Virus record (IMG/VR): IMGVR_UViG_2675903366_000018
Source of the DNA: a virus
Taxonomy: Duplodnaviria; Heunggongvirae; Uroviricota; Caudoviricetes
Strand: one strand, 5' to 3'
Length of the DNA: 15,292 nucleotides
In this document: piece after piece, positions 1 to 15,292 of the stretch
Numbering within the stretch: position 1 is the first letter of the stretch
Layout: each line of letters begins with the position of its first letter
The notes under the pieces: generated by a model
Told to the model about the DNA's origin: nothing
Database searches by the model: none
What the model saw: the letters and a program-made list of their open reading frames with translations, nothing else
Made by a program: the position numbers and the translations under genes

Positions 1-200
1 TGTCAGTTATCATCTTCGGTTACGGTTATCGGCAGAACGCCCTGCCGCTGACAAGAGCTTATTTGCCTGACCAATCTACTCCACATGATAGATAACTATC
101 ATTTATAGCATTTGGCTTATTATCCTTTATTTTTCATTGCGTTACAAACAATAAGCTCGTCAAAAACAGTAAAATTAACTACACCATTAACTACACCGTT

Positions 201-1581: not shown

Positions 1582-1875
1582 TTACGTACGCAGCCGCTCC
1601 GGTTTCTTCCACTGGTAAGTCTTTTTCTCGCTCTCCCGATACATCTCCACGCGGCGACGATATGACAACAACTCCAGAACTCTGATCCGTATGTCGCGCA
1701 TATCCACGCCGTTAAGCTCAATACCATCACGGCGCATCACCTCAGCCACCACACGCGCGTAATTTTCAGCGGTGACAGTTTCCGGCTGCGTGGCCTCACG
1801 TTTGCCTGCTGCCGGGCTGATTCCGGTAACGCGGCGGATTATTTTTAGTAGTTCGGTTTCGCTCATTCTCGTCAT
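1582..1875 (-). CDS. Hypothetical protein (97 aa), translationally coupled to terL
   Basis: ATG at 1873-1875 overlaps the terL TGA stop (1872-1874) as ATGA; charged, non-repetitive composition. No recognisable family by eye. Confidence 0.45.
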   Translation of the reverse strand: MTRMSETELLKIIRRVTGISPAAGKREATQPETVTAENYARVVAEVMRRDGIELNGVDMRDIRIRVLELLSYRRRVEMYRESEKKTYQWKKPERLRT

Positions 1876-3533
1876 ACCCCATCAAACGCCGCAAGCCGCT
1901 CTTTGTGGCTGTCGCTTATATCAAAGGCAAAATCTTCATGCTCTGCCTGGAATGTGCCAAACGCCATCAGCGCCGCAACGCTCGGGTCTATCTTGTTGGA
2001 TGATTTTTTCTTGTTCGGCTTGATATTGGCGTTCGCGTCACTCTGCATCACAACATTACTCATTGACCAGGCCAGCACCGGATCACCACGATGCACAATC
2101 ACCTTCCGGTTAACAAAAACTTCGAACGATTTCGCCGCCGGACTGAAACGAAGGTATGTTTGCGGGAACGGCTCCACCTCAAATCCCGCGCCCTGTAGCT
2201 GCGTCCTCAGGTGCGTGGCGTTCCATGTATCGAAACCCACCAGCCTGATATTGAAATTCTCTGCATCCGCCATGATGTCATCACGGATACGGTCATAATC
2301 AATGCAGTCACCCGGTGTTGTGCGTATCCAGCCCGCCTTTGCCCACTGGCGATAGATGGCGCGGTTTTTATTGGCAGGGTTCTGTAGCTGAAATTCCGGC
2401 AGATAGTGACGGGAAACCAGCATAATCTTTTTACCGACCGGGAAGGCATAGCACACGCTGGAAATATCGCTGGTTGATGATAAGTCCAGCCCCGCGTAGC
2501 ACTCCTGCCCGTATAAATCCGCCTCCGCGAACGTTCCGGCGCACTCCGCCCATGCACCGTTACCCATCCATGGCGTAGCCCCCTGACACCAGATGTTAAA
2601 TCGCTTAGTAAGCATCTCCACCCACTGCGACGGAATACCCCGCGCTTTCTGGATGGTTGAGGCCAGTTTTTCACGATCGACGGAAACATCGATATTGGGA
2701 TTCGCCTTTATCCACATCGCCGGATCGTCAACCTCGCTTTCATCATCCAGCTCGTAAATCAGCACGAACATGGATTCATTCACCTCTTCACCATCCAGTA
2801 TCTGGCAGCAATAGTCATAGTGTTGTTTACAGGCTGAAACAACGTTGCTCCCCGATGTGGTGATGGCAAATAACAGCCCCTCCGGGCGTGCCCCCATTCC
2901 CAGTTCAAGCGCGGAATAAACCCCGTTGTCAGGGTGCAGGTGATATTCATCCACAATGGCGAGACTCGGGTTTGTCCCCTCAATGGTTGCCGCTTTTGCT
3001 GCCAGTGGCTTTAACAGGCTGTTGGTTTTCGGGTGTATCACCTTGTGCGCCTGAATATTTACCCGCTTTCGTAACGGTCGGGATAAAAGGCACATCTGAC
3101 GCGCATCATCAAACACGATCCGCGCCTGATCACGACTCACGGCGGCGGTGTAAATATCCTGCTGCCCGTTTTCCATAACCAGAAACCAGTTAGCCAGGAT
3201 AGCCGCGACCGTGGATTTGGCATTTTTTCGCGGTACTTCAATGAATGCGCTGGTGTATTTGCGCCGTCCGGTGGCCTTAACCTTAAAGCCCAGGATGCAG
3301 GCAAAGGCGAACTGCTGCCACGGCTCCAGCTCAATGGGGCTACCGCGCATTGCGCCTTTTACGTGCGGACACACCCTGGAAAAGGCAATAAACCGCTCCA
3401 CGACCTCCGGATCGAACGTGTAAAGGGGGTTTTCAAGGTCAGAAAAATACCGTTTAACGGCCTGTTTCAGTCGTTTACAGGCCGTAATTTTGCCGTTTTT
3501 TACGCCTTCTGCGTACTCATGCCAGGTGGTCAA
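1872..3533 (-). CDS. terL: Phage terminase large subunit
   Basis: 553-aa ORF; conserved terminase N-terminus (EYAEGVKNGKITACKRLKQAVKRYF), P-loop-like VPRKNAKST and Walker-B-like LAIVDEYH. No ATG near the 5' end; most upstream start is TTG at 3531-3533 behind a purine-rich AGAGGAAGAGGA stretch, overlapping terS by 17 nt. Confidence 0.9.
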   Translation of the reverse strand: MTTWHEYAEGVKNGKITACKRLKQAVKRYFSDLENPLYTFDPEVVERFIAFSRVCPHVKGAMRGSPIELEPWQQFAFACILGFKVKATGRRKYTSAFIEVPRKNAKSTVAAILANWFLVMENGQQDIYTAAVSRDQARIVFDDARQMCLLSRPLRKRVNIQAHKVIHPKTNSLLKPLAAKAATIEGTNPSLAIVDEYHLHPDNGVYSALELGMGARPEGLLFAITTSGSNVVSACKQHYDYCCQILDGEEVNESMFVLIYELDDESEVDDPAMWIKANPNIDVSVDREKLASTIQKARGIPSQWVEMLTKRFNIWCQGATPWMGNGAWAECAGTFAEADLYGQECYAGLDLSSTSDISSVCYAFPVGKKIMLVSRHYLPEFQLQNPANKNRAIYRQWAKAGWIRTTPGDCIDYDRIRDDIMADAENFNIRLVGFDTWNATHLRTQLQGAGFEVEPFPQTYLRFSPAAKSFEVFVNRKVIVHRGDPVLAWSMSNVVMQSDANANIKPNKKKSSNKIDPSVAALMAFGTFQAEHEDFAFDISDSHKERLAAFDGV

Positions 3534-3873
3534 GCTCGTCCTCTTCCTCTGTTTCCGGTGGATTTCTGCGGCGGCTTACCGGGTCAAAACCCAGCAAAGA
3601 AGCCATTTTGATCATTATTCTTTCTGCGTCAGCCTTTGCGCTCAGTGCGGGGTTTCTGCTCTCGCTGCCCTGACTGTTAACAATGCTGAAGCCGCGTGTC
3701 GCAAGGTCTTCGACGGCTTTGCGGTATAGGGAGTAGTTAACGCAATACAGTTCCAGATTGCTCCAGTCGGCGGGGGTAAGGTCTTCCCGCCCGGATAGCT
3801 GGCGCGATTTTTCCTTCCACTGCCTGACCGCGATTTCATCCAGGTAAGCGGGGGCTTTTGGTGGTCTTGCCAT
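3517..3873 (-). CDS. terS: Phage terminase small subunit (P27-family-like)
   Basis: Start taken at internal ATG 3871-3873 (MARPPKAP...), not the 165-aa ORF start. C-terminal GSESRNPALSAKADAERIMIKMASLLGFDPVSRRR matches the P27-family pattern; sits immediately upstream of and overlapping terL. Confidence 0.7.
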   Translation of the reverse strand: MARPPKAPAYLDEIAVRQWKEKSRQLSGREDLTPADWSNLELYCVNYSLYRKAVEDLATRGFSIVNSQGSESRNPALSAKADAERIMIKMASLLGFDPVSRRRNPPETEEEDELDHLA

Positions 3874-4161
3874 GTTCTTTTTTCGCCCAATTATTTTCAA
3901 AAAAATTCCCGTGCACAAAAATTTGAGGAGGCGGTCGGTGTCCGGCATGGACGGTTTCGTCCTGAAAACCTCCCCCACCCCCTCTGACGGCCTCACCAGC
4001 GATTGCGAAAACATTCCATGACCTCGCGGTCACGGTCGGTTAATCGCTTCGCTGTGGTGCGTTCTGTGCGCCCTGTCCTGTTGGCTTTGTGCTCTGTCTC
4101 CTGTGTCTTCCATGTGTCACGCTGCCTTATCAGTCCACGTATCAGCCTGTTTTGCTCCTGT

Positions 4162-4602
4162 TCAGTCATCATCGCCATACATCCAGTCGTTACGGTGTGC
4201 TGCCCGTTCTTCCTGATCGCGATACATGCCCGCCTTACGGTTCGCTTTCGTGGCTGGATCTTCCCGTGTCGTCTTACGGTTGTGGCACGTCTGACACAAT
4301 GCCTGGTGATTCCACTCAGGCCAGAAGAGAACATCACCGCCGCCATTGATGGGGATAATGTGATCCACCACAAAGGCTGGCGTATAAATACCCTCAGCCA
4401 GACAACGCACACATAACGGATTTTTTTTCAGGTACATGGCGCGGTATTTGTCCCACTGTCGGGAATACCCGCGCGCGCGGCGGTGTCCCCGTCTGGCATC
4501 CTCTGCACGCCATGCAGCCCGCCTGTGCTCTTCACACTTGCCGGACTTCACGCGCTTATTACAGCCCGGCTCAGTGCATCGCCTTAATGGTTGCCATGGC
4601 AT
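4162..4602 (-). CDS. HNH endonuclease (phage packaging-associated)
   Basis: N-terminal Cys cluster (CTEPGCNKRVKSGKCEEH) and HNH core (VVDHIIPINGGGD...NHQALCQTCHNRKT). ATG at 4600-4602 overlaps the upstream gene's stop as ATGA. Sits next to terS/terL as in cos-type HK97-like packaging modules. Confidence 0.85.
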   Translation of the reverse strand: MPWQPLRRCTEPGCNKRVKSGKCEEHRRAAWRAEDARRGHRRARGYSRQWDKYRAMYLKKNPLCVRCLAEGIYTPAFVVDHIIPINGGGDVLFWPEWNHQALCQTCHNRKTTREDPATKANRKAGMYRDQEERAAHRNDWMYGDDD

Positions 4603-4898
4603 CAGTACACCCCCACATCACGATAAACCGACCAGAGCGCGGAAATCGTCAGGGGAATTTCTTTTGTATCGGTATCGCCAAGCGTTGTCCGGTACTCGTA
4701 CAGTTGCGAGATGTACATCAGGCAACCAATTTTTATTGCAGGGGTAAATTCCAGGCCGTCATCAAAACGCCTGCCAATATGCTTCTGGCATACCTCCAGC
4801 GCCGCACTTATGTATGCCTGAATCAGTGTGTCTTCTGTGTTACCATCTATGCGGCAGTGAAGTTTGGCCTCTTCCAGGGTTATTTTTTCTGCTGTCAT
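4602..4898 (-). CDS. Phage head-tail connector protein (gp6-like)
   Basis: 98 aa; N-terminus ITLEEAKLHCRIDGNTEDTLIQ is typical of gp6-like connector proteins; ATGA overlaps at both ends. Confidence 0.7.
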   Translation of the reverse strand: MTAEKITLEEAKLHCRIDGNTEDTLIQAYISAALEVCQKHIGRRFDDGLEFTPAIKIGCLMYISQLYEYRTTLGDTDTKEIPLTISALWSVYRDVGVY

Positions 4899-5233
4899 TT
4901 TTCTGTACCCACCTTTGCCAGAATTTCCAGCCGGGTTCTTTTCGCATCAGGTAAGGGGATCCCGATGATATTAAGCGTGCTCCCGGCAAAAGCGCCGGTA
5001 AGCACTTTCAGGCGACTGGCGGCGGATATGTCGCCACGATAGCGAACCCATACCCGAATCGTTGCAGGTGCGGTTTCTGCGCCTGCGGTCAGTAATTCCC
5101 GTCCGCTGATCCCCTTGACCTCTGCCCAGATGGTTTCCCCTTCCGTCCATATCTGCTGGATCGCACCTGACGGCAGGCGCTGTGTGGTAAATGTCATAAT
5201 CGTCACCCGGTCCCGCATCTTTCCGGCTATCAT
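4895..5233 (-). CDS. Phage head-tail adaptor / head closure protein
   Basis: 112 aa; starts MRDRVTI...; size, position between portal and connector and overall similarity to head-tail joining proteins; ATGA coupling with neighbours. Confidence 0.65.
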   Translation of the reverse strand: MIAGKMRDRVTIMTFTTQRLPSGAIQQIWTEGETIWAEVKGISGRELLTAGAETAPATIRVWVRYRGDISAASRLKVLTGAFAGSTLNIIGIPLPDAKRTRLEILAKVGTEK

Positions 5234-6453
5234 TCGTCACCGCCCTTACTGTTCTTGCTGATTGTCACTTCCTGCTTCCATGCCTGGCTGAACTCGTCGC
5301 CACCTTCACGCGGCGGCATTCCCTCACGCTCACGGGCTTCGTTCGGATTCATGATCCCGTTCTTAATCCCTTTCTCATACGTGGCGTAACGTTCGGTAGG
5401 GGTGGCGCGTAATAAATCGGCTGAATCAAACTCAACCAGATAACGGGTACCAGGTACGGGAGAAGCCACCAGCAAAGCGGCCTTGATTTGCTGTTCGAAG
5501 TTCGCCAGCCACGGGCGCATTGTCATGGTCAGAAACGCACGGCTTGCCTCGCTGAAATTGCTGTAGGTGCTGTTGCTGTATTCCTGCAGAAAAATAGGCG
5601 ATACGTTGAACATGCGGGCGATGTCTTCAATGGAGAAGCGACGGGAGGCCAGCCATTCCGCATCCTGGTTACTCATTCCCAGTTGCTTGTAATCCATGCC
5701 CCCTTCAAGAATTGGCGTTTTTCCGGCATTTTTCGCCCCCTTGTAGCGTTCCAGAGCATCTAATGCCTGTTTACCTTTCACGCCGTCCAGCCATTCACCT
5801 GACGTGATAATCCCTGCCGCCATCATGCCATCTTTCATAATGCTGGCTCCGTGGCGCTGTTGAGCAAGACCAAGCCCCAGCGCCTCACGGCAAATCGTGA
5901 CAGGGGAGCGCCCCAGAAAGCCATCATCCGAGGCATAGCGGAGATGCAGAACTTCTTCCTGTAAATACGTGCGCACCGTTCCTGTATAGGGTTCGGTGAT
6001 GGTATAGCGGTATTTGTGTGCGCCTGTGCGTTCCGGTACAACACACCCCGGCGCATAAGGATGAAGTGATTTTGGCTGTCCGTCCCGCCCCCACTCAATA
6101 ACCGCATAGGCGTTACCGTTCAGCAGGCAGTGACGCATCATTGTGCGTTTAAACTGGTAAGGTGTCTGGCATGAATTAGGCTGCTCATTCAGCAGAATAT
6201 CTACCGGGTGACTGTCCAGCCATTCCCGCGCCTCTCTGCCCTTATCATTGCGTACAAGATACAGGTAACACGGCATCGTGGCCACCGCCTCAGAGATAAC
6301 AGAAACCGCGTTCATCACAGCAGGCAATGATTCAGCCGTCCCGGCAGAAACATATTCTCCAGATCCGGTATTTGGTACGCCGGACAGCGCCAGAAAATCA
6401 TCAATGGACAGGTTACGCTGCTCGCTTTTTTTACGACTAAAAGGCCACCACAT
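5230..6453 (-). CDS. Phage portal protein (HK97 family)
   Basis: About 407 aa from ATG at 6451-6453, which lies 1 nt after the protease stop (TGA at 6455-6457). The longer ORF to 6543 starts with TTG and overlaps the protease by 89 nt, so is judged an artefact. Length and position fit HK97-type portals. Confidence 0.8.
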   Translation of the reverse strand: MWWPFSRKKSEQRNLSIDDFLALSGVPNTGSGEYVSAGTAESLPAVMNAVSVISEAVATMPCYLYLVRNDKGREAREWLDSHPVDILLNEQPNSCQTPYQFKRTMMRHCLLNGNAYAVIEWGRDGQPKSLHPYAPGCVVPERTGAHKYRYTITEPYTGTVRTYLQEEVLHLRYASDDGFLGRSPVTICREALGLGLAQQRHGASIMKDGMMAAGIITSGEWLDGVKGKQALDALERYKGAKNAGKTPILEGGMDYKQLGMSNQDAEWLASRRFSIEDIARMFNVSPIFLQEYSNSTYSNFSEASRAFLTMTMRPWLANFEQQIKAALLVASPVPGTRYLVEFDSADLLRATPTERYATYEKGIKNGIMNPNEAREREGMPPREGGDEFSQAWKQEVTISKNSKGGDE

Positions 6454-6454
6454 A

Positions 6455-7015
6455 TCACAACCCCGCCAGCTCAGCCCAGCGATGACGATTATTTCCTGTC
6501 GGACGTAATTCGGGGTGCTGTGCAAACAACGAACGGTGGGCAATCTCCACGCCAGATTCTGGATAAGCAGGCATCGACGTTATTGTGATTTCTCGGAGTT
6601 CAGCGGCGGTTACGGTACGCAGATACGGTTTTTGCGCGATACTCCACTCCTCGCATAATGCGCGAAAACCAAAGCTCATTCCTGTAATGTCGCCACGCTC
6701 CACCAGCGTAAGCACATCTTTTCCAAGCTGGGTATCCGGCGGTGTCAGCTCAAAACGTAACCCGGTGTTATCCTCAGTCAGTACCAGAGTGCCGGATTTG
6801 GTGCGCCCCAGCAGTTGGGTATAGTCATGCTCATACAGGCAGCGCACATCATTACCCGCCGCCAGATAGTCAGCAAAAGCCCCCGGCGTGAACTGTTCGC
6901 GGAATTCGTCCCAGATAATTTCTGAAAGGCTGTTCCAGCGAACGGCATAACCCACCAGCTTTTTATTGCTGGCGGTCAGTTCAGATGTGCGGATTTCAAA
7001 ATCGGTGTTTTTCAT
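6455..7015 (-). CDS. Prohead (maturation) protease, HK97 family
   Basis: 186 aa; overall similarity to HK97-family prohead proteases by eye; ATG at 7013-7015 preceded by GGAG about 7 nt upstream. Confidence 0.8.
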   Translation of the reverse strand: MKNTDFEIRTSELTASNKKLVGYAVRWNSLSEIIWDEFREQFTPGAFADYLAAGNDVRCLYEHDYTQLLGRTKSGTLVLTEDNTGLRFELTPPDTQLGKDVLTLVERGDITGMSFGFRALCEEWSIAQKPYLRTVTAAELREITITSMPAYPESGVEIAHRSLFAQHPELRPTGNNRHRWAELAGL

Positions 7016-7035
7016 CGGTGTACTCCATAAAGCTG

Positions 7036-7056
7036 AAAAAGGAGGCCGCAGCCTCC
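7036..7056 (-). terminator. Putative intrinsic terminator/attenuator between capsid and protease genes
   Basis: On the minus strand: GGAGGC-TGCG-GCCTCC hairpin (6-bp GC-rich stem, 4-nt loop) followed by TTTTT, 14 nt after the capsid stop codon. Confidence 0.4.
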
Positions 7057-7069
7057 TCCTTACTCATGA

Positions 7070-8239
7070 CTAGCCAGCTTTCATTTCCAGAATTTTGATG
7101 GCGTTTGAATCCACCACACCACCGCCCAGATATTTATCCGTGTGGACCTTGTAGAATCCGGGTTCAGTAATGTTGTCCGGTCGGGTGCGAATCCCTGTTA
7201 CATGATCAACGATGAAATAACCACGACTGAAATCGCCAACCGCCAGCGGTGCTTTTCCTGCGCCGATGTCCGGCATGGACTCCAGGCAGTAAACAGGACG
7301 ACCAAGCAACATATCCGGCGCACCTTCTTTAAGGCTGTCGCGCCAGATATAATCGCCGTTCTCATTTTTCAGCTTCTGTAGTGTCCCTGCCGTGCCCGAG
7401 TTCATCACCCAGACGGCATTTTTGCGGTATTTCGCTTTCAGCCTGTAGAGAATGTCGATCAGTTCGTCCGCTGTAATGGCGGTTCCACTTGCCGCTATCA
7501 TTTTTTCAATGGTGCCAAAAGCGCGGGTTTTGTCACTGGTCGCTGCACGGGTGTAAGCCATGAAGCCTTTCGGCTTGCCGTTACCGTCGCCATTAACAAA
7601 ATCATCCTCTTCGGTGCTGGCGAACGTGTCGGCAATTTCGGAGGATAACCAGCCCAGAATATCCACCTCTGAAAAATCCAGAATTTCCTGCGTGGTTTTC
7701 GGGTAGGCGTAGATCGGATTCAGCTTGATGGTTACGCGTTCAATTTTCGGGGTGTTGGTTTCGCTGCGCGCGCTGCCTTCTGTGCCTCTTCCTACAGTTG
7801 CGCCGCCAGTGGAAACCAGTTTCTGAAACTCATTTGATTTTGCGGTCTTCACGGTCGCGATCACGCGCATAACACTGTCATCCTGTAGCTGGCGCATGAC
7901 TTCGCGATCAAGCTCAGGAATTACGGTATATCCGCCATCCCTGCCGCTGTCAGTGCTGGTGGATAGTGATCGCACATCTCCGGTTACGATGTAGTTACGC
8001 AATTCATCAGATGATAATTTCCGGATGCCCGTTCCTGGCTTGCTGCGTTCTTCATCAGCCACAGACTCGAGGCGGGAAATTTCTGTGCCGAGGGAATCGG
8101 CTTTTGCACGCAGTTCATCAAACTGTTTGCCCTCGTCATCGTTCAGGCTACGGTTTTCACTGTCGGCTTTTTCCAGCAGGGATCGCATCTGGTTTTTCAG
8201 GGCGTTTTTTTGCTGGCGGAGTTCGATTAATTTCTTCAT
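7070..8239 (-). CDS. Major capsid protein, HK97 fold, with N-terminal coiled-coil (scaffold/delta-like) region
   Basis: 389 aa; the first ~100 residues are heptad-like and rich in E/K/R/L, followed by a capsid-like domain; ATG at 8237-8239. Followed directly by protease and portal genes. Confidence 0.85.
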   Translation of the reverse strand: MKKLIELRQQKNALKNQMRSLLEKADSENRSLNDDEGKQFDELRAKADSLGTEISRLESVADEERSKPGTGIRKLSSDELRNYIVTGDVRSLSTSTDSGRDGGYTVIPELDREVMRQLQDDSVMRVIATVKTAKSNEFQKLVSTGGATVGRGTEGSARSETNTPKIERVTIKLNPIYAYPKTTQEILDFSEVDILGWLSSEIADTFASTEEDDFVNGDGNGKPKGFMAYTRAATSDKTRAFGTIEKMIAASGTAITADELIDILYRLKAKYRKNAVWVMNSGTAGTLQKLKNENGDYIWRDSLKEGAPDMLLGRPVYCLESMPDIGAGKAPLAVGDFSRGYFIVDHVTGIRTRPDNITEPGFYKVHTDKYLGGGVVDSNAIKILEMKAG

Positions 8240-8428
8240 GAAGGTTTTCTCGTATTGGTTAAGATTCAGGACGTGAAACCAACACGGAGGGAGCGCCGCC
8301 CGACACTCTCGGCATCTCGCAGATCAACCCGGCATCGCGCAGGGGTCAGGCGGCATTGTGGCGGCTCACGTCTGAGTGCCACACGCCAACATATACATAA
8401 AAATCAGTATGTAAACATCAGCCAGAAT

Positions 8429-8460
8429 CACCGAACAATCTGGAACAACCACGAACAAAT
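8429..8460. promoter_or_regulatory. CGAACAA direct-repeat array (3 copies, 10-bp phase) ~190-220 bp upstream of the capsid gene; putative regulator binding site for the head/packaging operon
   Basis: CACCGAACAATCTGGAACAACCACGAACAAAT; near-identical to 201-231. Lies in a 275-bp non-coding region upstream of the capsid ATG, flanked by A-tract repeats ACCTGAAAAAAA x2 at 8471-8497. Confidence 0.4.
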
Positions 8461-8513
8461 AATTTACAAAACCTGAAAAAAAGACCTGAAAAAAAATCCA
8501 GGCCTTTATCGCT

Positions 8514-8762
8514 TTATTGTTTCACTGGATCCCGCATTCTGCGTCTTATTTTCCACAGATATTCGATCATCGCTTCCACCTGCTCACGGTTGGTTGCGAA
8601 AATTTCCCCGGTCAGTGAGCTGCGCAGAAAATCATGATGATCCACAACAAACAACGCATCGGAAGAAAGCAGACGGCGATATTTTTTTGCTGTCGTGGTT
8701 TCCAGATCATCAAAACCATGAAACTTTTTATGTTGCTGAACTTCTTCAAATGTCACAGGCAT
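8514..8762 (-). CDS. Hypothetical protein (82 aa)
   Basis: ATG at 8760-8762 preceded by a perfect AGGAGG; the ORF-track start at 8780 is GTG and lacks an RBS. No recognisable family by eye. Confidence 0.5.
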   Translation of the reverse strand: MPVTFEEVQQHKKFHGFDDLETTTAKKYRRLLSSDALFVVDHHDFLRSSLTGEIFATNREQVEAMIEYLWKIRRRMRDPVKQ

Positions 8763-8794
8763 GTTTCCTCCTGCTACCACGATACCAGAAACAG

Positions 8795-9091
8795 TTAATA
8801 ACCGTTATCAATTATCCCTTTTTTTTTCGGGTAGTTCCTGAACATCTCACCGCCAGGTTTCTGTAAGCCCATCCCGGTATGTGTGCGGTTTATGGCCTCT
8901 TTCAGTATTCCGAAATTATCCGGCATGACTGGTGGGCGCGCTGCCTTACGGATACATTCCTCGCGACGCTTTGCCACCTGTTCGCGCTCCTTGTCAGTGC
9001 TCACCAGCCACATAACATCAGCCCAACGTGCCGCCGCTCTCCGGTACAGCCCTTTAGCCTCCAGTTCTTCCGCTTTGCTGTCTTTAATCAT
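8795..9091 (-). CDS. Small transcriptional regulator, PerC/ANR-like (tentative)
   Basis: 98 aa from ATG 9089-9091 (GAGG 6 nt upstream); N-terminal motif AEELEAKGLYRRAAARWADVM resembles PerC/ANR-family small regulators found in enterobacterial prophages. From memory only. Confidence 0.4.
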   Translation of the reverse strand: MIKDSKAEELEAKGLYRRAAARWADVMWLVSTDKEREQVAKRREECIRKAARPPVMPDNFGILKEAINRTHTGMGLQKPGGEMFRNYPKKKGIIDNGY

Positions 9092-9106
9092 GCTGTACCT
9101 CACTGC

Positions 9107-9532
9107 TTAAAACGGTATCCCGTCCCCGTACGGATCATCGTGCTGGCCTGTCTGTTGTTTTGCCCTGTTCAGTGCGTCAGTGGCCTGGCCCTGTTGACCT
9201 TTTTTGCCGCCCGGTCGCGCCGTTCGCGCACTGATTACGCTGTCTGCAATAACCTGCCAGCCCTGCCGCGTTTCGCCGTTCTGCCCTGTCCACTGGCTTA
9301 CCTGCATGTTACCCGCCACGCTCACCAGTTCGCCTTTGCGGTGTTTTGCCAGTGCGTCGGCCTGTCTGCCAAACGCCAGGACGGATAACCACATCGTCGC
9401 CGTTCCGTCATCTGCCTGGCTGCATGGAAGGGGAACCGCCATACTCACCATCGCCATTTGTGTCCCCTTGCTGGTGGTCTTTAACTGCGGGTCAGCCACC
9501 AGCCGACCGTAAGCCGCTATCTGTGCTGTCAT
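9107..9532 (-). CDS. ssb: Single-stranded DNA-binding protein
   Basis: 141 aa; Gly/Gln-rich linker and acidic C-terminal tail ...DDPYGDGIPF, the SSB protein-interaction tip; ATG at 9530-9532 with GGAGAG upstream. Confidence 0.75.
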   Translation of the reverse strand: MTAQIAAYGRLVADPQLKTTSKGTQMAMVSMAVPLPCSQADDGTATMWLSVLAFGRQADALAKHRKGELVSVAGNMQVSQWTGQNGETRQGWQVIADSVISARTARPGGKKGQQGQATDALNRAKQQTGQHDDPYGDGIPF

Positions 9533-9595
9533 GCTTTCTGCTCTCCGGTTTTAACGTTGATAGTTACGCTTGTTTAAACCCTTACTGTGAAATTC

Positions 9596-9722
9596 TGCGG
9601 GTTATAATCGCACTTTTGCGGGTTATAACTGCCGTTTTGCGGGTTACGTGCGGGTTATTGATTTCCTTTTTATTCATACAGTTAATGCACTTATACACAG
9701 GATAACCCGCATAACCCGCAAC
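9596..9722. repeat. Putative replication origin: 4 direct TGCGGGTTAT iterons (starts 9596, 9617, 9638, 9649), 40-bp AT-rich spacer, 2 inverted ATAACCCGC copies (9702, 9711)
   Basis: Read directly from sequence; 21-bp spacing of the first three iterons; ends 20 bp before the replication gene's stop codon (9743-9745), the usual place for the ori in PICI/SaPI-type satellites. Confidence 0.6.
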
Positions 9723-9742
9723 TTTTCACCTCACACAGGGGG

Positions 9743-11875
9743 TTAATCTTCTGCCTCAGGCTGGAACATCAGCACGTAAAAAACATGCTGCTTCCCCCCA
9801 ATTTTGCCGAGCGCCTTTTTCTTGTAACGGCGATCGTTACCCGCTTCCAGCATTCCGGCAGCACTCAACGCGCGGGCAAAGTGAGACGGATTAAATCCCT
9901 GTGCTATCTCACCCTCAAACACATGCGGGAACGTGTAAAAACGGAACTCGTCATCTTCGTTTCTGATACTCCCCTTTCTGTATCCGGCAAGCTCTTTAAT
10001 CGGTAAATCACGCTCGTCAGAGTTGGGCCAAGGAAGGTATCTGCTGAATCCGAACGACGCTAAAAAAGCCTCTGCCTGTTCAACCATCTGTTTAAACTCC
10101 CTGTTCCCCGTGCCGAACTCCTTCACCCAGGCATTAAAATTATGCTGAATGGCATCGCGGCATTCCTGCTCATCCCAGCCAGTAACATGACCGGAAAGTA
10201 CAAGCGCGGCCTCCAGTATGGCGAATCGTTCCCCCACACGGTGAACCTGTTCGCCGTAGCTCTCCGGTATCAGGTTGCGCCACCGCTCGCGACATGCCCT
10301 TACCGCGTCCTTTGCCTCCTGCTGGTGTTCTGCCAGCCATTTAACCCACTCACGACCTGCCGCCCCGTGATTTTCTGTCCAGGCATCTTTTAACGCGTCT
10401 GCGTGCGCCTTTCCGGTGCTGTATTCGTGAAACTGCGAGGCCTTTTCCATCGGCACGTTAAGCAGACGGACAAGCTGCCCCGCTTTAATTTTTATCCCTT
10501 CCGTTTTGAGGAATGTTTCAACGTCCATTTCTCCGGTGCTGATTGCCACCGTGCGCCAGTGTTTTATCTCCCTGTTGCCGCCGTCCTTCGCCCCCTGTAA
10601 TTTCCCCGAACCGTTAAACAGCGTATAGGCTGACGTGGACACCTCCCGCGCGTTTCCGGCCTGGCCTATTTCATCCAGGGGTAACAGCCCGTCATTATGT
10701 GCTTCGGCCTCGTTGGCGATACCTAACGCCGTTCCGTACCAGGTCAGCCGTTGCGCGTCCGGCTCTCCCCATAAACTGGATGCGATGTTCTGTGTGGTGG
10801 TTTTCCCTGCTGATGACTGTTCGAAAAGATGTACCCCGAAGCCGTCAGCACCCACCAGCCCGATTAATGGTGCTGATAACGATACCGCCACACCCAGCAT
10901 CATGGACGGATTACCACCAGCCAACCGCGCAACGGTATCGCGCCAGCCCTCCGCCGTTCCTGCCTCGGAATAACCATTAACAGCGGCAGTTTTTCCGGTA
11001 AACAGGACTGGCTTTTCGCAATCACCAATGACCGAACCGTCCGGCATGATGTACGCGCCAAAATGCCAGCCCGTTGTTGTGCTTAACTGCCATTCCTCAT
11101 GGTTTCCGCTTAACTGCATCCAGTCAGCCAGGATAGCCCTGTATTTACCGTTGGTTGTCACATTCAGTCCGTGGTCTTTCAGCAGCCGCCAGCCGTCACG
11201 GTCGCCAATGCCCCCACACGGGATCGCCATTGTGATGACTTCATGGTTTGCTGGTTTTTTCCAGCGCATCACGCGGTAATGCTCTTTGCCGATTGTCCCC
11301 GTTCCCAGTAGTTCAAGCGGGGAACATAACCACGTCTCAGGCCGGATAATTTCGCCTGACTGCTTATCCACTTTTGGCGTTACCCAGAAAACACCATCGG
11401 CACGGCTTTCAACGCGGGGCTTTAATTCATCATCACCCGGGCTTGTGGTGGTTTTTTTCTTTACCGGAAGCTTAATTACCAGATCTGCAGAAAGATTCTG
11501 ACGCTCAACGTTCAGATAGCGCCGCCAGTTCTCACATTTCTGACCGTGCATTCCTTCAGGGTAAAAATTCGCATCCTGAATATCTGCCGCCGCCAGCTTC
11601 TGACCGATCTTTTTGGTCTCCACTAAATCCAGTTCTCCGGCCTGGTACAGCCTTACGCGTTTTTTCCCATCCGGAACAATTTTCAGCGCATCAAGTTCGG
11701 CAAGCTGATTTGGCCCAAGCCACACAGGCGGCACATCATCGCCAGATGCGGGGCCGTCCTGCTCCTGCCACTGTTTTGCATGTGCCCACGCATCACTACC
11801 CGCGAAAATAATTACCTCTGTGTCTTTGTGTTTTATTCCGCGTGGTTGTTTTTTTACGTTCGGTGCCAGTTTCAT
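9743..11875 (-). CDS. Replication initiator, primase/helicase-type (Pri-Rep-like), with central P-loop NTPase
   Basis: 710 aa; Walker A GVHLFEQSSAGKTTT and Walker B GLLPLDEIG in the central region; resembles DUF927/primase-associated replication proteins of satellites; ATG at 11873-11875 overlaps the upstream ORF's stop (ATGA). Confidence 0.75.
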   Translation of the reverse strand: MKLAPNVKKQPRGIKHKDTEVIIFAGSDAWAHAKQWQEQDGPASGDDVPPVWLGPNQLAELDALKIVPDGKKRVRLYQAGELDLVETKKIGQKLAAADIQDANFYPEGMHGQKCENWRRYLNVERQNLSADLVIKLPVKKKTTTSPGDDELKPRVESRADGVFWVTPKVDKQSGEIIRPETWLCSPLELLGTGTIGKEHYRVMRWKKPANHEVITMAIPCGGIGDRDGWRLLKDHGLNVTTNGKYRAILADWMQLSGNHEEWQLSTTTGWHFGAYIMPDGSVIGDCEKPVLFTGKTAAVNGYSEAGTAEGWRDTVARLAGGNPSMMLGVAVSLSAPLIGLVGADGFGVHLFEQSSAGKTTTQNIASSLWGEPDAQRLTWYGTALGIANEAEAHNDGLLPLDEIGQAGNAREVSTSAYTLFNGSGKLQGAKDGGNREIKHWRTVAISTGEMDVETFLKTEGIKIKAGQLVRLLNVPMEKASQFHEYSTGKAHADALKDAWTENHGAAGREWVKWLAEHQQEAKDAVRACRERWRNLIPESYGEQVHRVGERFAILEAALVLSGHVTGWDEQECRDAIQHNFNAWVKEFGTGNREFKQMVEQAEAFLASFGFSRYLPWPNSDERDLPIKELAGYRKGSIRNEDDEFRFYTFPHVFEGEIAQGFNPSHFARALSAAGMLEAGNDRRYKKKALGKIGGKQHVFYVLMFQPEAED

Positions 11876-12159
11876 TTCTTACCCCCTGCGACCAGCATTT
11901 CACGGATTTTGCGGATATAGCTTGCTGCACGTTTCTGATTTACGGCTTTACGATGGCCCACCAGCGTGAAATCACGCCGGAACTGATAAACAGGCATCAC
12001 GCAGTCATATTCGTAGCCATCACGGCGGTAAGTGATGCGCCGTTCTGCCACGCCTTTAATCGTTACCATGCCGCCATATTTATCGCGGTAAATATCGCCG
12101 TTCATAAATTCAGGACGAGCGGGGCCGCTGGCGGTAAAGCCAGAATTTTTATTTTTCAT
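11872..12159 (-). CDS. Hypothetical protein (95 aa), translationally coupled to the replication gene
   Basis: ATG at 12157-12159; stop overlaps the pri-rep start; basic, non-repetitive composition. Confidence 0.5.
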   Translation of the reverse strand: MKNKNSGFTASGPARPEFMNGDIYRDKYGGMVTIKGVAERRITYRRDGYEYDCVMPVYQFRRDFTLVGHRKAVNQKRAASYIRKIREMLVAGGKK

Positions 12160-12164
12160 GGTTT

Positions 12165-12392
12165 TTATTCCGCGTTTATTTTTTTATCGTGAATTTCGAT
12201 CGCTTTATTTAATTCGACGATTACCGTATCGAGTAATGAAATAAACGCACCAGCAAGATTAGATTCACGCTCATCTTCCGGCGCATCACTTAAACCATCA
12301 AGCCAGATAAGAAATATTTGCCTCAAACATTCACTGTTAGTCAGTGCGTTTTCTGCATGGCTCATTGATTTAAAATAACGGTCATCATGCAT
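12165..12392 (-). CDS. Hypothetical acidic protein (75 aa)
   Basis: ATG at 12390-12392 preceded by AGGGGG; overlaps the upstream gene's stop by 8 nt (ATGCATGA). Confidence 0.45.
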   Translation of the reverse strand: MHDDRYFKSMSHAENALTNSECLRQIFLIWLDGLSDAPEDERESNLAGAFISLLDTVIVELNKAIEIHDKKINAE

Positions 12393-12588
12393 GGCGCACC
12401 CCCTGACGAATACGGGCAGTAAATACCATCACGCAGCCATCAGGAGATTGCTGGCGAGCTTCCTGTTCGCTGGTGGCCTCGATGGTAATCACGCGCGGTT
12501 GTGTCGTGCTCAGAGCGATAAAACGCCAGATGTATTTATTCAGGTTGTGCGAGTCCCGCCCTTGCGGGTGTGTGGTATGATTTCTCAT
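12385..12588 (-). CDS. Small protein (67 aa), possibly Icd-like (host cell-division inhibitor family) - tentative
   Basis: Start taken at ATG 12586-12588 (GAGG 5 nt upstream); the 97-aa ORF-track version starts at TTG and runs through the operator-like inverted repeat. C-terminal region (QQSPDGCVMVFTARIRQGVRHA) resembles Icd-like proteins of P4-type elements, from memory only. Confidence 0.35.
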   Translation of the reverse strand: MRNHTTHPQGRDSHNLNKYIWRFIALSTTQPRVITIEATSEQEARQQSPDGCVMVFTARIRQGVRHA

Positions 12589-12686
12589 AGCTGCCTCGAT
12601 ACTCTCGTTATCGTTGGTGGTTAGACGCCCCGTATGTGTTTCCGGCACTGCGGGGCGTTGCTCTTTGTATTTCAACAATCCTTTCG

Positions 12687-12766
12687 GTGTGTTTCATGTT
12701 ATGAGCGCATGAAACACACGTCAAGGCTTTTTGTATTTCTTTTTTTGTGTATACTGAAACACACCG
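12687..12766. promoter_or_regulatory. Divergent control region: perfect 12-bp inverted repeat GTGTGTTTCATG-N9-CATGAAACACAC (12687-12719), third half-site TGAAACACACCG (12755-12766) overlapping a -10-like TATACT (12750-12755)
   Basis: Read directly from sequence; lies between the minus-strand small-gene operon and the plus-strand gene starting at 12786 (AGGAG RBS at 12773-12777). Confidence 0.45.
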
Positions 12767-12785
12767 ATGATTAGGAGTTTCAGAA

Positions 12786-13091
12786 ATGGCAACGGCTAAC
12801 AAAAACGCAAAATCACAACTGACAACTGTCAGAGTCCCACTAGATGTTATGCAAGGGATGGAATCCGTTAAGCTGGACGGCGAAAGCAATGCCGGATTTA
12901 TCGTAACCGCCATGCGCGGAGAAATAGCCCGCCGCCAAGCAGAAGGCAGCGGAGAAAATCCCCTTGTGTCGTCACTGGATGCCCTGGCTAAGGTCGAACA
13001 AATCGGCATCAAAGCAGCGGAAGAAATCGGGCAGCTTGTCACCGTTGCACGCGAAGAACTCCAGCGTCGCAAGACCAAAGAACCAGAGTAA
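12786..13091 (+). CDS. Putative DNA-binding regulator (possible ribbon-helix-helix), 101 aa
   Basis: ATG 12786 with AGGAG 8 nt upstream and promoter-like TTGTAT...TATACT; N-terminal TTVRVPLDVMQGMESV fits a beta-strand-then-helix RHH-like start. The antisense 271-aa ORF here is Ser/Cys-rich and judged spurious. Confidence 0.45.
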   Translation: MATANKNAKSQLTTVRVPLDVMQGMESVKLDGESNAGFIVTAMRGEIARRQAEGSGENPLVSSLDALAKVEQIGIKAAEEIGQLVTVAREELQRRKTKEPE

Positions 13092-13133
13092 TCACCATCA
13101 GCGCCGTGGTGTAAGGTATTACGGCGCATTGCT

Positions 13134-13322
13134 ATGCAGGACAACACAATGACCGATAAAGAATTGACCAAAACATTATCACCGGCACGGAAAAGACGGC
13201 GCAGAAAGATAGAGCATGAATCAGAAAGATTCGCGCCATGTGCTTTTGCTCTTGAGAAATTCCTTAAGGAGCACAAGAAAAAGCTATCATTGCAAACCTG
13301 GGAGCTAACCGAATCTGACTGA
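13134..13322 (+). CDS. Hypothetical small basic protein (57-62 aa; RKRRRRK motif)
   Basis: Same strand and 42 nt downstream of the preceding gene; alternative ATG at 13149 has AGGA 8 nt upstream; followed by a strong terminator. Confidence 0.35.
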   Translation: MQDNTMTDKELTKTLSPARKRRRRKIEHESERFAPCAFALEKFLKEHKKKLSLQTWELTESD

Positions 13323-13386
13323 TCACATTGCCCACCAGCCAGCAAATCGCTATGATGTTCGGGCTTATGTTTAGTGTTTTCCCATT

Positions 13387-13415
13387 GGCGACCGCCCCCG
13401 GTCGCCTTTGTTTTA
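13387..13415 (+). terminator. Rho-independent terminator closing the plus-strand two-gene module
   Basis: GGCGACCG-CCCC-CGGTCGCC (8-bp GC-rich stem) followed by TTTGTTTTA; located between the plus module and the convergent alpA 3' end. Confidence 0.55.
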
Positions 13416-13434
13416 TGTGCCATATACTCCCCCT

Positions 13435-13644
13435 TTACGCTGCCTTACCTGAATTAATGCGATCCCGGCTTTTAACCCATTCCATAACCTCGGACAGCAG
13501 CCAACCAACAGAACGACCGCCCAGATTAAGACGTGACGGAAAGCATCCTTTTTTCTCCAGTTCGTAGCGTGTAGTGCGACACACTCCAGTTAACTTACGA
13601 CATTCATCCTCACGGATTACGCGATCTTCATTTATTTCACGCAT
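13435..13644 (-). CDS. alpA: AlpA-family phage transcriptional regulator / excisionase-like HTH protein
   Basis: 69 aa from ATG 13642-13644: MREINEDRVIREDECRKLTGVCRTTRYELEKKGCFPSRLNLGGRSVGWLLSEVMEWVKSR, the AlpA-type HTH pattern. The ORF-track version starts with GTG at 13731 (98 aa) and could be the true start; the HTH position favours the shorter form. Confidence 0.75.
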   Translation of the reverse strand: MREINEDRVIREDECRKLTGVCRTTRYELEKKGCFPSRLNLGGRSVGWLLSEVMEWVKSRDRINSGKAA

Positions 13645-14053
13645 ACAAAAACCTACATAAAAATTACGTATATAAACTTTTCTCTTAGCTGTAGATATAT
13701 GAGATCGGATATTACTTAGATTCTTTTTCACCTCTTAAATTAAAAACACAACCTTGCTAAAGGCTTTGTTCGCTAAGGTTCGTAGAAGCTCGTTAGTGTT
13801 TAAAATCGTGTCACGAGTTTTTAAGCGACGCAACAAAAAATGTCGTCATTTGGCATTACGCTTGAATTATCTCATTAAAAACAAATAGATAAACCATCAG
13901 GTATTGGAACAATCAAGAAATAGCTAATAAGGGTTTAGTAGGGTGCATTTCAATTTTTTCGATGGTTGACAAATAAAAAATTAACGAACTTGACCGATAT
14001 TTAGCGTTTTATTCACGGCTGTAATCTCTTAAAGAAAAAACAGCCGTAATTTG

Positions 14054-15292
14054 TCAAGAATTTTGGGTGTAAATTCGCGGGGTCATAACAACGATTTTTT
14101 CATCATTGTTCTGGAGAAGCTCGAGACGGTCTACCCATAGATTAAGAGCATCACGTTTTGCATCAAGATAACGGGAGTGGTTATAGACTCGCTGCATCCC
14201 TGGCATCTGGTGGGCTGTAAGCTGCTCGACAATATGCGGATCCACGCCTAAATCGTTCAGCATGGTTGTAAATGTGTGCCGGATGTCATGCAACGACCAG
14301 GGGGCTTGATTAATGCGTCTGTGTGCCGTTCTTCCGTACTCTGATACGGATGATTGCCCTTTCAGTTCTCCAAGCAATAAGCCCGTGTGCCTGTTCTTCT
14401 GCACCAGCTTCGTGACGAACGGCAAAATGCTTTCCGGTATTGGCCTGAATATGGCGACCTTCGTTTTGCTGTGCTCCTTCGGTACTGTCCAGAGCATTTC
14501 TTTAAAATCCCACTCCTGCACCTCAGAGCGCCTTAGCTCAGTGGTACGGCATCCAAAAACAATCAGGAGGCGAATTAGGGCGCTGTAGTATGGCGGGAAT
14601 ATTTTGTCATCCAGGGCGCGGAGTAATTCCCCAAGCTCCTTATTTGTTAGTACGCGCTCGCTCACTTCTGCTTTTTTTCCCACATCACCGACAACCATAT
14701 CATCAAGAACGTTGCTGATTGCGTATCGTCGTTTTCGGCAGTACTTAAGCGCCTGTTTGCATACCTGTAGCAAAAATCCGGCTGATACCGGATTACGCTT
14801 AGCAAGCTGGTCAAAACAGGCCAGCCAGTGGCGTAGCTCGCATTTTTCCAGTGGCATAGCGCCAATCTGGCTAATTATGTGTTTATTGATCCGGCTTTTC
14901 AGTGATTCGTAGTCAGTGCGCTTTTCCTTTGCGTACGATTCAAGCCAGTAAGTGAGCGCTTCCTTAACCGTCACGGGGGCTAACGCATCCTGTACAGCAT
15001 GATTAAGTTCATAGCGCGGATTTTTCCCCTCAGCCAGCCAGGCGCGACACTGTGCCGCTTTTTCCCTGGCAGCTTTCAGGCTCAGATCGGGATAATTGCC
15101 CAGCCTCAGACGTTCCGGTGATATCTGCCTACCAGTTCCGGCCCTGTAAGTGAAATACCAGGTTAACAGGCCATTGATTGAATGCCTTACGCTAAGGTTG
15201 CCACCATCATTAAAAAAGGTGCTTTTTGTGGTTGGTGATCCGCTTAATTTTCGTAAAAGAGTGTCGCTAAGTCTATGAATTGCCCTGCTCAT
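14054..15292 (-). CDS. int: Tyrosine site-specific integrase (P4-like family)
   Basis: 412 aa; catalytic-domain motifs GCRTTELRR, HDIRHTF (H-x-x-R) and YNHSRY (catalytic Tyr region); ATG is the last three bases of the window, so upstream attachment site and promoter are not visible. Confidence 0.9.
   Translation of the reverse strand: MSRAIHRLSDTLLRKLSGSPTTKSTFFNDGGNLSVRHSINGLLTWYFTYRAGTGRQISPERLRLGNYPDLSLKAAREKAAQCRAWLAEGKNPRYELNHAVQDALAPVTVKEALTYWLESYAKEKRTDYESLKSRINKHIISQIGAMPLEKCELRHWLACFDQLAKRNPVSAGFLLQVCKQALKYCRKRRYAISNVLDDMVVGDVGKKAEVSERVLTNKELGELLRALDDKIFPPYYSALIRLLIVFGCRTTELRRSEVQEWDFKEMLWTVPKEHSKTKVAIFRPIPESILPFVTKLVQKNRHTGLLLGELKGQSSVSEYGRTAHRRINQAPWSLHDIRHTFTTMLNDLGVDPHIVEQLTAHQMPGMQRVYNHSRYLDAKRDALNLWVDRLELLQNNDEKIVVMTPRIYTQNS

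Follow-up and report, generated by a model that had tools for sequence, protein, structure and literature searches.

This study has delimited, in a virus record of 15,292 nucleotides (IMG/VR IMGVR_UViG_2675903366_000018; hereafter the window, meaning the whole stretch of DNA analysed), most of an element of 15,374 bp that is very probably an intact, integrated capsid-forming phage-inducible chromosomal island (cf-PICI) of Escherichia coli, seated in the intergenic bacterial attachment site (attB) between cspD/yljB and clpS. Elements of this family, first described in 2022-23 on the E. coli island EcCIEDL933, build a small head of their own and take only tails from a helper phage (10.1101/2022.09.08.507074). 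A sequence-only reading of the window had proposed the same class, and all the features that define it at the level of sequence are present, together with synteny to EcCIEDL933. The SatelliteFinder cfPICI model comprises 11 core components and forbids tails and holins (PMC10085698), and 11 of the 11 were found here as Pfam profile matches, so that on its gene content the element is classed as a cfPICI of Type A, a type that holds all 11 components and has been reported only in Proteobacteria (PMC10085698). The assignment is carried by the borders of the element, its gene content, its synteny and homology with the prototype, its iteron clusters and the lack of tail and lysis genes in or around it, and nothing in the sequence contradicts it.

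The borders were set by comparing the empty K-12 site with occupied sites. A 17-bp attachment (att) core, TGATAGATAACTATCAT, lies at 86-102, at the junction distal to the integrase gene, and with this core as border the element runs from window position 103 to 184 bp past the window end, the last base of the window (15292) belonging to the int start codon. Exact-protein look-ups led to two GenBank assemblies, GCA_016998655.1 and GCA_005041385.1 (loci L014 and L015), which are 100% identical to all 15,292 window bases, and in these, as in locus L007, a second copy of the core with one mismatch occupies the positions 168-184 bp beyond base 15292. Past that second core L014 and L015 continue into yljB, cspD, macB, macA, ybjX and ybjD, and the other flank is clpS. 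Window positions 1-102 are E. coli chromosome, from the clpS upstream region; positions 1-106 are 99% identical to the K-12 empty site, and almost all complete E. coli genomes have this region directly upstream of clpS. The sequence-only reading, which had the element begin at 1582 and extend over ~13.7 kb, thus missed 1.48 kb on the left (103-1581). It had also looked to the region beyond 15292 for an att site or a transfer RNA (tRNA) gene; the core copy is there, and a tRNA scan of the window gave none, hence attB is not a tRNA gene. The site is intergenic, with the core overlapping the stop codon of yljB, a 25-aa gene. We note of window 86-106 that duplication of the core restores yljB at the int-proximal junction, and that the clpS start codon is ~100 bp downstream of the insertion point. 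Two tandem ATTAACTACACC repeats occur at 174-197 on the plus strand, and the same pair recurs at the opposite end, 25-47 bp past the int start; these paired repeats are probably arm-type sites of the integrase, which carries the arm domain PF13356.

Pfam, PHROG and NCBIfam profile searches of the window open reading frames (ORFs) gave strong support to the genes already named from sequence, that is the integrase, AlpA, Rep, SSB, PerC, an Icd-like protein and the head and packaging set. The genes are full length as compared to their profiles, with no frameshifts or truncations, and all the substantial ones lie on the minus strand; two plus-strand genes stand between alpA and the Icd-like gene. 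The prototype used for comparison, EcCIEDL933, was located in NZ_CP008957.1 from 1,680,329 to ~1,695,600, between roxA and phoQ (L003:20329-35600), and is of the same size, 15.4 kb. The two elements share the order int-alpA-(Icd-like)-DUF4222-DUF927 rep-ori-SSB-PerC-capsid-protease-portal-adaptor-connector-HNH-60aa-TerS-TerL-94aa, followed by a gene-free tail, and their iteron sequence is the same. They differ in attB (cspD-clpS here, roxA-phoQ in the prototype), in the presence here of a YlcI/YnfO gene and a 75-aa gene in the regulatory block, both of which EcCIEDL933 lacks, and in the position of a second iteron module, found at the distal end here and next to rep in EcCIEDL933.

The gene order of proteobacterial cf-PICIs, morphogenesis genes and then hnh-terS-terL, is found in the element (percentages in this account of the genes are amino acid identities to EcCIEDL933). 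The head genes encode a major capsid protein of the HK97 fold (7070-8239; PF05065, 2e-71; 63%), a prohead serine protease of the S78, HK97 family (6455-7015; PF04586, 7e-46; 63%), a portal (likely 5230-6453, which gives the 407 aa called in L014, with the longest ORF running to 6543; PF04860, 1e-92, with portal matches in the PDB; 79%), a head-tail adaptor or head-closure protein of the Phage_HCP family (4895-5233; PF05521, 1e-18; 54%) and a gp6-like head-tail connector (4602-4898; PF05135, 8e-12; 68%). These are followed by an HNH endonuclease, the packaging accessory nuclease (4162-4602; PF01844, 2e-9; 83%), a 61-aa gene between HNH and terS (3993-4178; phrog_3173, 3e-28; 80% to the prototype 60-aa gene), a P27-family TerS (likely 3517-3873 from an ATG at 3873, which gives the 118 aa called in L014 and L015, with the longest ORF running to 4014; PF05119, 8e-23; 80%), a TerL with ATPase and nuclease domains (1872-3533; PF03354, 4e-26, and PF20441, 3e-52; 94%) and, last in the putative packaging operon, a 97-aa terminal gene of unknown function (1582-1875; phrog_1561, 2e-47; 70% to the prototype gene after terL), homologues of which also end classical PICIs. 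The named packaging proteins, at 54-94%, fall inside or exceed the 50-90% that Alqurainy et al. give for family members against EcCIEDL933 (10.1101/2022.09.08.507074). Counting genes onward from the prototype capsid, which is gene 1786 (10.1101/2025.02.11.637232), the 61-aa gene would be the counterpart of gene 1792, a mutant of which is severely reduced in transfer (10.1101/2022.09.08.507074). An intergenic segment of ~120 bp upstream of terS (3874-3992, minus strand), rich in G, is a putative cos region; it is 87-92% conserved with EcCIEDL933 and locus L001 (mean column identity 92%), and cf-PICIs have been reported to have cohesive ends (10.1101/2025.02.11.637232). A lambda-type cos at the distal end, as in classical E. 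coli PICIs, was rejected, there being no GGGCGGCGACCT within 2 mismatches in the window. The lack of tail and lysis genes claimed from sequence also held: these searches revealed no tail, holin or lysis gene, either within the element or next to it (the tail and holin profiles of SatelliteFinder themselves were not run), the remaining ORFs of at least 40 aa in the element have no Pfam or PHROG family match, and the L014 and L015 flanks are chromosomal.

The capsid ties the element closely to the prototype and sets both apart from true phages. Its best PDB match is 9gyi_B (E = 3e-153), whose aligned sequence fits the EcCIEDL933 capsid translation; the alignment crosses the region of the ‘connector loop’ (prototype 227-248) with a one-residue gap only, and next in the PDB come capsids of the gene transfer agent of Rhodobacter. 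Of 50,697 phage records only four contain a match to the capsid at 61-77% identity, including two genomes of 15-16.5 kb, which is about the size of a cf-PICI, and its identity to true phage capsids is at most 37%. HK97-type siphophages with HNH-dependent cos packaging have the same families for capsid, S78 protease, portal, gp6 connector, head closure, HNH, P27 TerS and TerL. As compared to these phages the element lacks tail, lysis, immunity and lambdoid replication modules, and has a genome one third as large. The adaptor shares 63-69% identity with head-closure proteins of Klebsiella prophage-derived phages and of Escherichia phage Fraca, all siphophages. It is thus nearer to siphophage proteins than the capsid is, a pattern that fits an exchange of adaptors to match helper tails. 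According to He et al. the adaptor/connector pair fixes tail compatibility (10.1101/2025.02.11.637232). Given that the head proteins are 63% and the adaptor 54% identical to those of EcCIEDL933, a different tail partner is likely, and because the adaptor is at the same time 63-69% identical to siphophage proteins the tail donors likely differ from HK106.

Based on experiments with EcCIEDL933 and related cf-PICIs, a life cycle can be proposed for the element. A helper prophage would turn on alpA, and the integrase would then excise the element. The DUF927 Rep would bind the ATAACCCGCAA iterons and, with SSB, replicate the element, while the operon of capsid, protease, portal, adaptor, connector, HNH, 61-aa gene, TerS and TerL would build small (T=4) heads of the HK97 type. 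Into these heads the element's own HNH-TerS-TerL terminase might package unit-length, cos-ended DNA. The filled, tail-less heads would presumably be completed by tails of a helper siphophage, the adaptor/connector pair setting which tails fit, and after injection the integrase would re-insert the element at the 17-bp core. Of these steps, induction through alpA, small T=4 capsids containing the island only, and dependence on helper tails have been shown only for EcCIEDL933 and a few other cf-PICIs (10.1101/2022.09.08.507074; 10.1101/2025.02.11.637232).

Several points weigh against reading the element as an intact cf-PICI. The functional steps would be carried over from a prototype to which the capsid is only 63% and the adaptor only 54% identical; no helper phage is known for the element; and the candidate cos between HNH and TerS is placed there by analogy to HK97-type HNH-dependent cos phages. 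The capsid maturation motif (window 7940-7975, residues ~90-102) reads STSTDSGRDGG as compared to STGVPADGG in the prototype, with a 2-residue insertion and a misfit to the published SxGxxAD. A promoter scan found fewer sigma-70-like sites than in shuffled sequence (6 vs 13.9); the scan is not used as evidence, and the operon structure is therefore putative. The diverged motif and the distances of adaptor and capsid would both suit a true cf-PICI by descent that is now inactive, for instance through a defective cos, a mismatched adaptor or the want of a compatible helper. We consider this unlikely, as the genes are free of frameshifts and truncations, the putative cos region is conserved, the adaptor is close to proteins of living siphophages, and copies with 100% identity occur in at least two independent assemblies, with near-identical copies in many more. 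Moreover, the packaging module of strain SM107 is 98.7% identical and the match stops before the integrase, which suggests recent mobility.

A different kind of inactivity, that of a decayed HK97-like prophage, immobile and deprived of its tail and lysis modules, would likewise account for head and packaging genes of phage families, for the missing tail and lysis genes and for the want of a helper for this particular element; the prototype itself was first annotated as a cryptic prophage, CP-933C. We nevertheless hold decay to be very improbable. Random decay would not be expected to leave the same ~15.4-kb architecture in hundreds of genomes at various att sites, nor to leave every gene full length against its profile; the int-alpA-rep part is of PICI type and shares 99.4% identity with classical PICIs, the capsid does not exceed 37% identity to those of true phages, and the syntenic prototype is mobile by experiment (10.1101/2022.09.08.507074). 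A complete HK97-like prophage, whose tail and lysis genes might continue just outside the window and so overturn the sequence-only reading, was rejected because the 100% identical assemblies show ordinary chromosome on both sides (cspD-macBA-ybjX-ybjD and clpS, with no tail or lysis genes) of the 15,374 bp between the att cores. Alternatively, the element might remodel the capsids of a helper, as a classical PICI or a P4-like satellite, given that classical PICIs at the same attB have the identical integrase and an int-alpA-YlcI-Icd block at 99.4% identity, and that AlpA and a primase-helicase are traits of P4 as well. Gene content refutes this, and we give it next to no credence: portal, adaptor, connector and TerL are present, which the SatelliteFinder PICI model forbids and which are diagnostic for cfPICI (PMC10085698); there is no Phage_cap_E/HDPD/Nu1-Rpp module of the kind found in the classical PICIs L006 and L008-L010, and no lambda-type cosN; and Pfam and PHROG scans gave no Sid, Psu or Delta-type domain (P2 cos was not searched for). 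An intact cf-PICI remains the reading that we adopt.

The relation to classical PICIs is nonetheless close at one end of the element. In the classical PICIs at the same attB (L006, L008-L010) the integrase is 100% identical at the amino acid level to that of the window element, and the block int-alpA-YlcI-Icd (window 12384-15292) is 99.4% identical to L006 and L009. These PICIs, reportedly of the EcCICFT073 type of Fillol-Salom et al. (2018/2019), also share the att site, the SSB and the terminal gene of 94-98 aa. Their own module is of the Phage_cap_E/HDPD/second AlpA/Nu1 type, their primase is of the D5 type, and they need helper capsids; portal, protease, adaptor, connector, HNH and TerL, all present in the window element, are absent from them. 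One integrase block thus serves both classical and capsid-forming PICIs, and sharing of modules between the two has already been described in the founding papers. Among the close relatives we observed that L001 (12542-14051) lacks homologues of both the Phage_HCP adaptor and PerC, and that L016 is 96-99% identical to the element elsewhere, while its portal-protease-capsid block (the equivalent of window 5257-7432) aligns at only 74%.

The replication region is organised around Rep, a DUF927 primase-helicase-type initiator of 710 aa (9743-11875; PF06048, 7e-46; phrog_1139 ‘DNA primase’, 6e-178; 90%). With at most 1 mismatch the iteron ATAACCCGCAA occurs in 11 copies in the window as compared to 0.32 expected, and six of these lie at 9595-9721, in agreement with the iteron origin beside rep that had been predicted from sequence. 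This module A, between rep and ssb at the rep stop codon, consists of 4 iterons separated from 2 inverted ones by an AT-rich spacer of 43 bp, and the first iteron sub-cluster of EcCIEDL933 is collinear with it. A second origin-like module of Rep iterons, module B, lies at 425-611 in the distal gene-free region. It comprises an AT-rich palindrome (425-458), 2-3 inverted iterons (455-482), an AT-rich spacer of ~75 bp, and 3 direct ATAACCCGCAA iterons with a spacing of 21-22 bp (558-611), a classic arrangement in which inverted sets of iterons surround an AT-rich spacer. Over 153 nt module B aligns at 81% identity, in inverted orientation, with the second of the iteron sub-clusters beside rep in EcCIEDL933 (compare L003:26192-26509). 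Since that homologue stands beside the first sub-cluster in EcCIEDL933, an origin that is in tandem in the prototype is split here. Module B is also found at the distal end of L001, L004, L012 and L013. The Rep of L012, a classical PICI, is ~97% identical to that of the element over residues 1-600 and unrelated in its C-terminal ~110 aa; the iterons adjacent to its rep are TGTTGTCCCAC, and its distal module B keeps ATAACCCGCAA, which mismatches its own Rep (L012 regions 16050-16470, 9136-9292 and 16440-18584). That the C-terminus of Rep and the iterons change together in L012 supports control of iteron specificity by the C-terminus.

The distal region that holds module B (103-1581) is 1.48 kb of gene-free DNA with a GC content of 45% as compared to 50.5%. 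It is 98% conserved in L004, an element at a yifB attB; its full-length homologues are at least 98% identical, and what many other PICIs share with it are short mosaic pieces. Nine ORFs in or overlapping 103-1581 have no match in Pfam or PHROG, and Rfam gave no match for the whole window at the gathering threshold, nor for positions 1-1900 at E <= 1. A 37-nt repeat containing a 23-nt near-perfect palindrome, CTTTTCCACCAATGGTGGAAAAG, occurs at 289-325 and 1000-1036, with degenerate copies at 899-917 and 1387-1403, that is on both sides of module B, and some regulator may bind these 23-nt palindromes. A tandem duplication (289-999 and 1000-1700) was considered and rejected, the two segments having only the 37-nt repeat in common. 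We speculate, with considerable doubt, that this distal 1.5 kb is not junk, and that it provides either a split origin similar to the ori/crr of P4 or an origin, or decoy, for the Rep of another satellite. Satellite P4 has a bipartite origin, ori/crr. P4 resembles the element in its primase-helicase initiator with iteron binding and in having two separated iteron clusters on a small satellite; it differs in making no capsid protein, and no homology to P4 genes was found in the window element. If the origin is indeed split, Rep would need or use both of two sites, which on the circle are separated by ~6 and 9 kb. If instead it is a cross-satellite device, module B would travel with the terminal region of PICIs and be usable by, or a decoy for, the Rep of a co-resident satellite. 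As a third option, module B may be a relic.

The remaining genes are for the most part those of EcCIEDL933 or of classical PICIs. The tyrosine integrase (14054-15292, minus strand; PF00589 and PF13356; 77%) is terminal, 184 bp from the att core. An AlpA regulator of the excisionase type follows (13435-13731, minus strand; PF05930, 1e-15), probably in the 69-aa form (13435-13644), as 69 aa are called in L014. The two plus-strand genes are a YlcI/YnfO-family gene (12786-13091; NF041551, 2e-17; phrog_6522, 1e-63) and a 62-aa gene (13134-13322; phrog_21027, 3e-15), after which lies a strong, terminator-like hairpin (13387-13406). Antisense to this pair runs a 271-aa minus-strand ORF (12608-13423), rich in Ser, Cys and Leu, which some assemblies call as a gene and to which a 247-aa ORF annotated in EDL933 is partly homologous; it has no Pfam or PHROG match and is probably spurious. 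On the minus strand again are the Icd-like protein (12385-12678; NF033153, 7e-19), a 75-aa gene of unknown function between the Icd-like and DUF4222 genes (phrog_2196), the DUF4222 protein itself (11872-12159; 60%), and, beyond Rep, SSB (9107-9532; PF00436, 1e-16; 69%), a PerC-family regulator (8795-9103; 2e-35; 61%) and beside it, within 8514-9103, an 88-aa gene of unknown function (phrog_1957; 43%). What the sequence-only reading had called an RHH-like gene does exist and is the plus-strand gene of the YlcI/YnfO family. Its suggestion that the small genes might define an uncharacterised variant was not borne out: PerC, the Icd-like and DUF4222 proteins, SSB and the 88-, 62-, 61- and 97-aa genes are syntenic in EcCIEDL933, and the two genes without a homologue there, YlcI/YnfO and the 75-aa gene, lie in the block that is 99.4% identical to classical PICIs. 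As nearly all the small genes thus occur in EcCIEDL933 or in classical PICIs, no new variant is defined.

The packaging module (1582-8239) is covered to at least 80% at the DNA level in 393 of 5,426 complete E. coli genomes (~7%), with relatives occupying several attB sites, and the element is therefore ordinary and common, a new combination of alleles within an already known and well-populated cf-PICI family. By way of comparison, cfPICIs overall occur in 13% of Enterobacteriaceae genomes (PMC10085698), and ~1,000 are already in the SatelliteFinder catalogue. With the family known, a syntenic E. coli element as its prototype and many relatives on record, the value of the element as a discovery is small; its use is as a clean, fully delimited example of Type A at the cspD-clpS attB. 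Beyond this, its close relatives display modular exchange, in the integrase block, in the head module of L016 and in the adaptor of L001. If the adaptor/connector pair sets the choice of tail, the likeness of the adaptor points to helper candidates among siphophages of Klebsiella and E. coli, and module B raises the small question of how the origins of cf-PICIs are organised.

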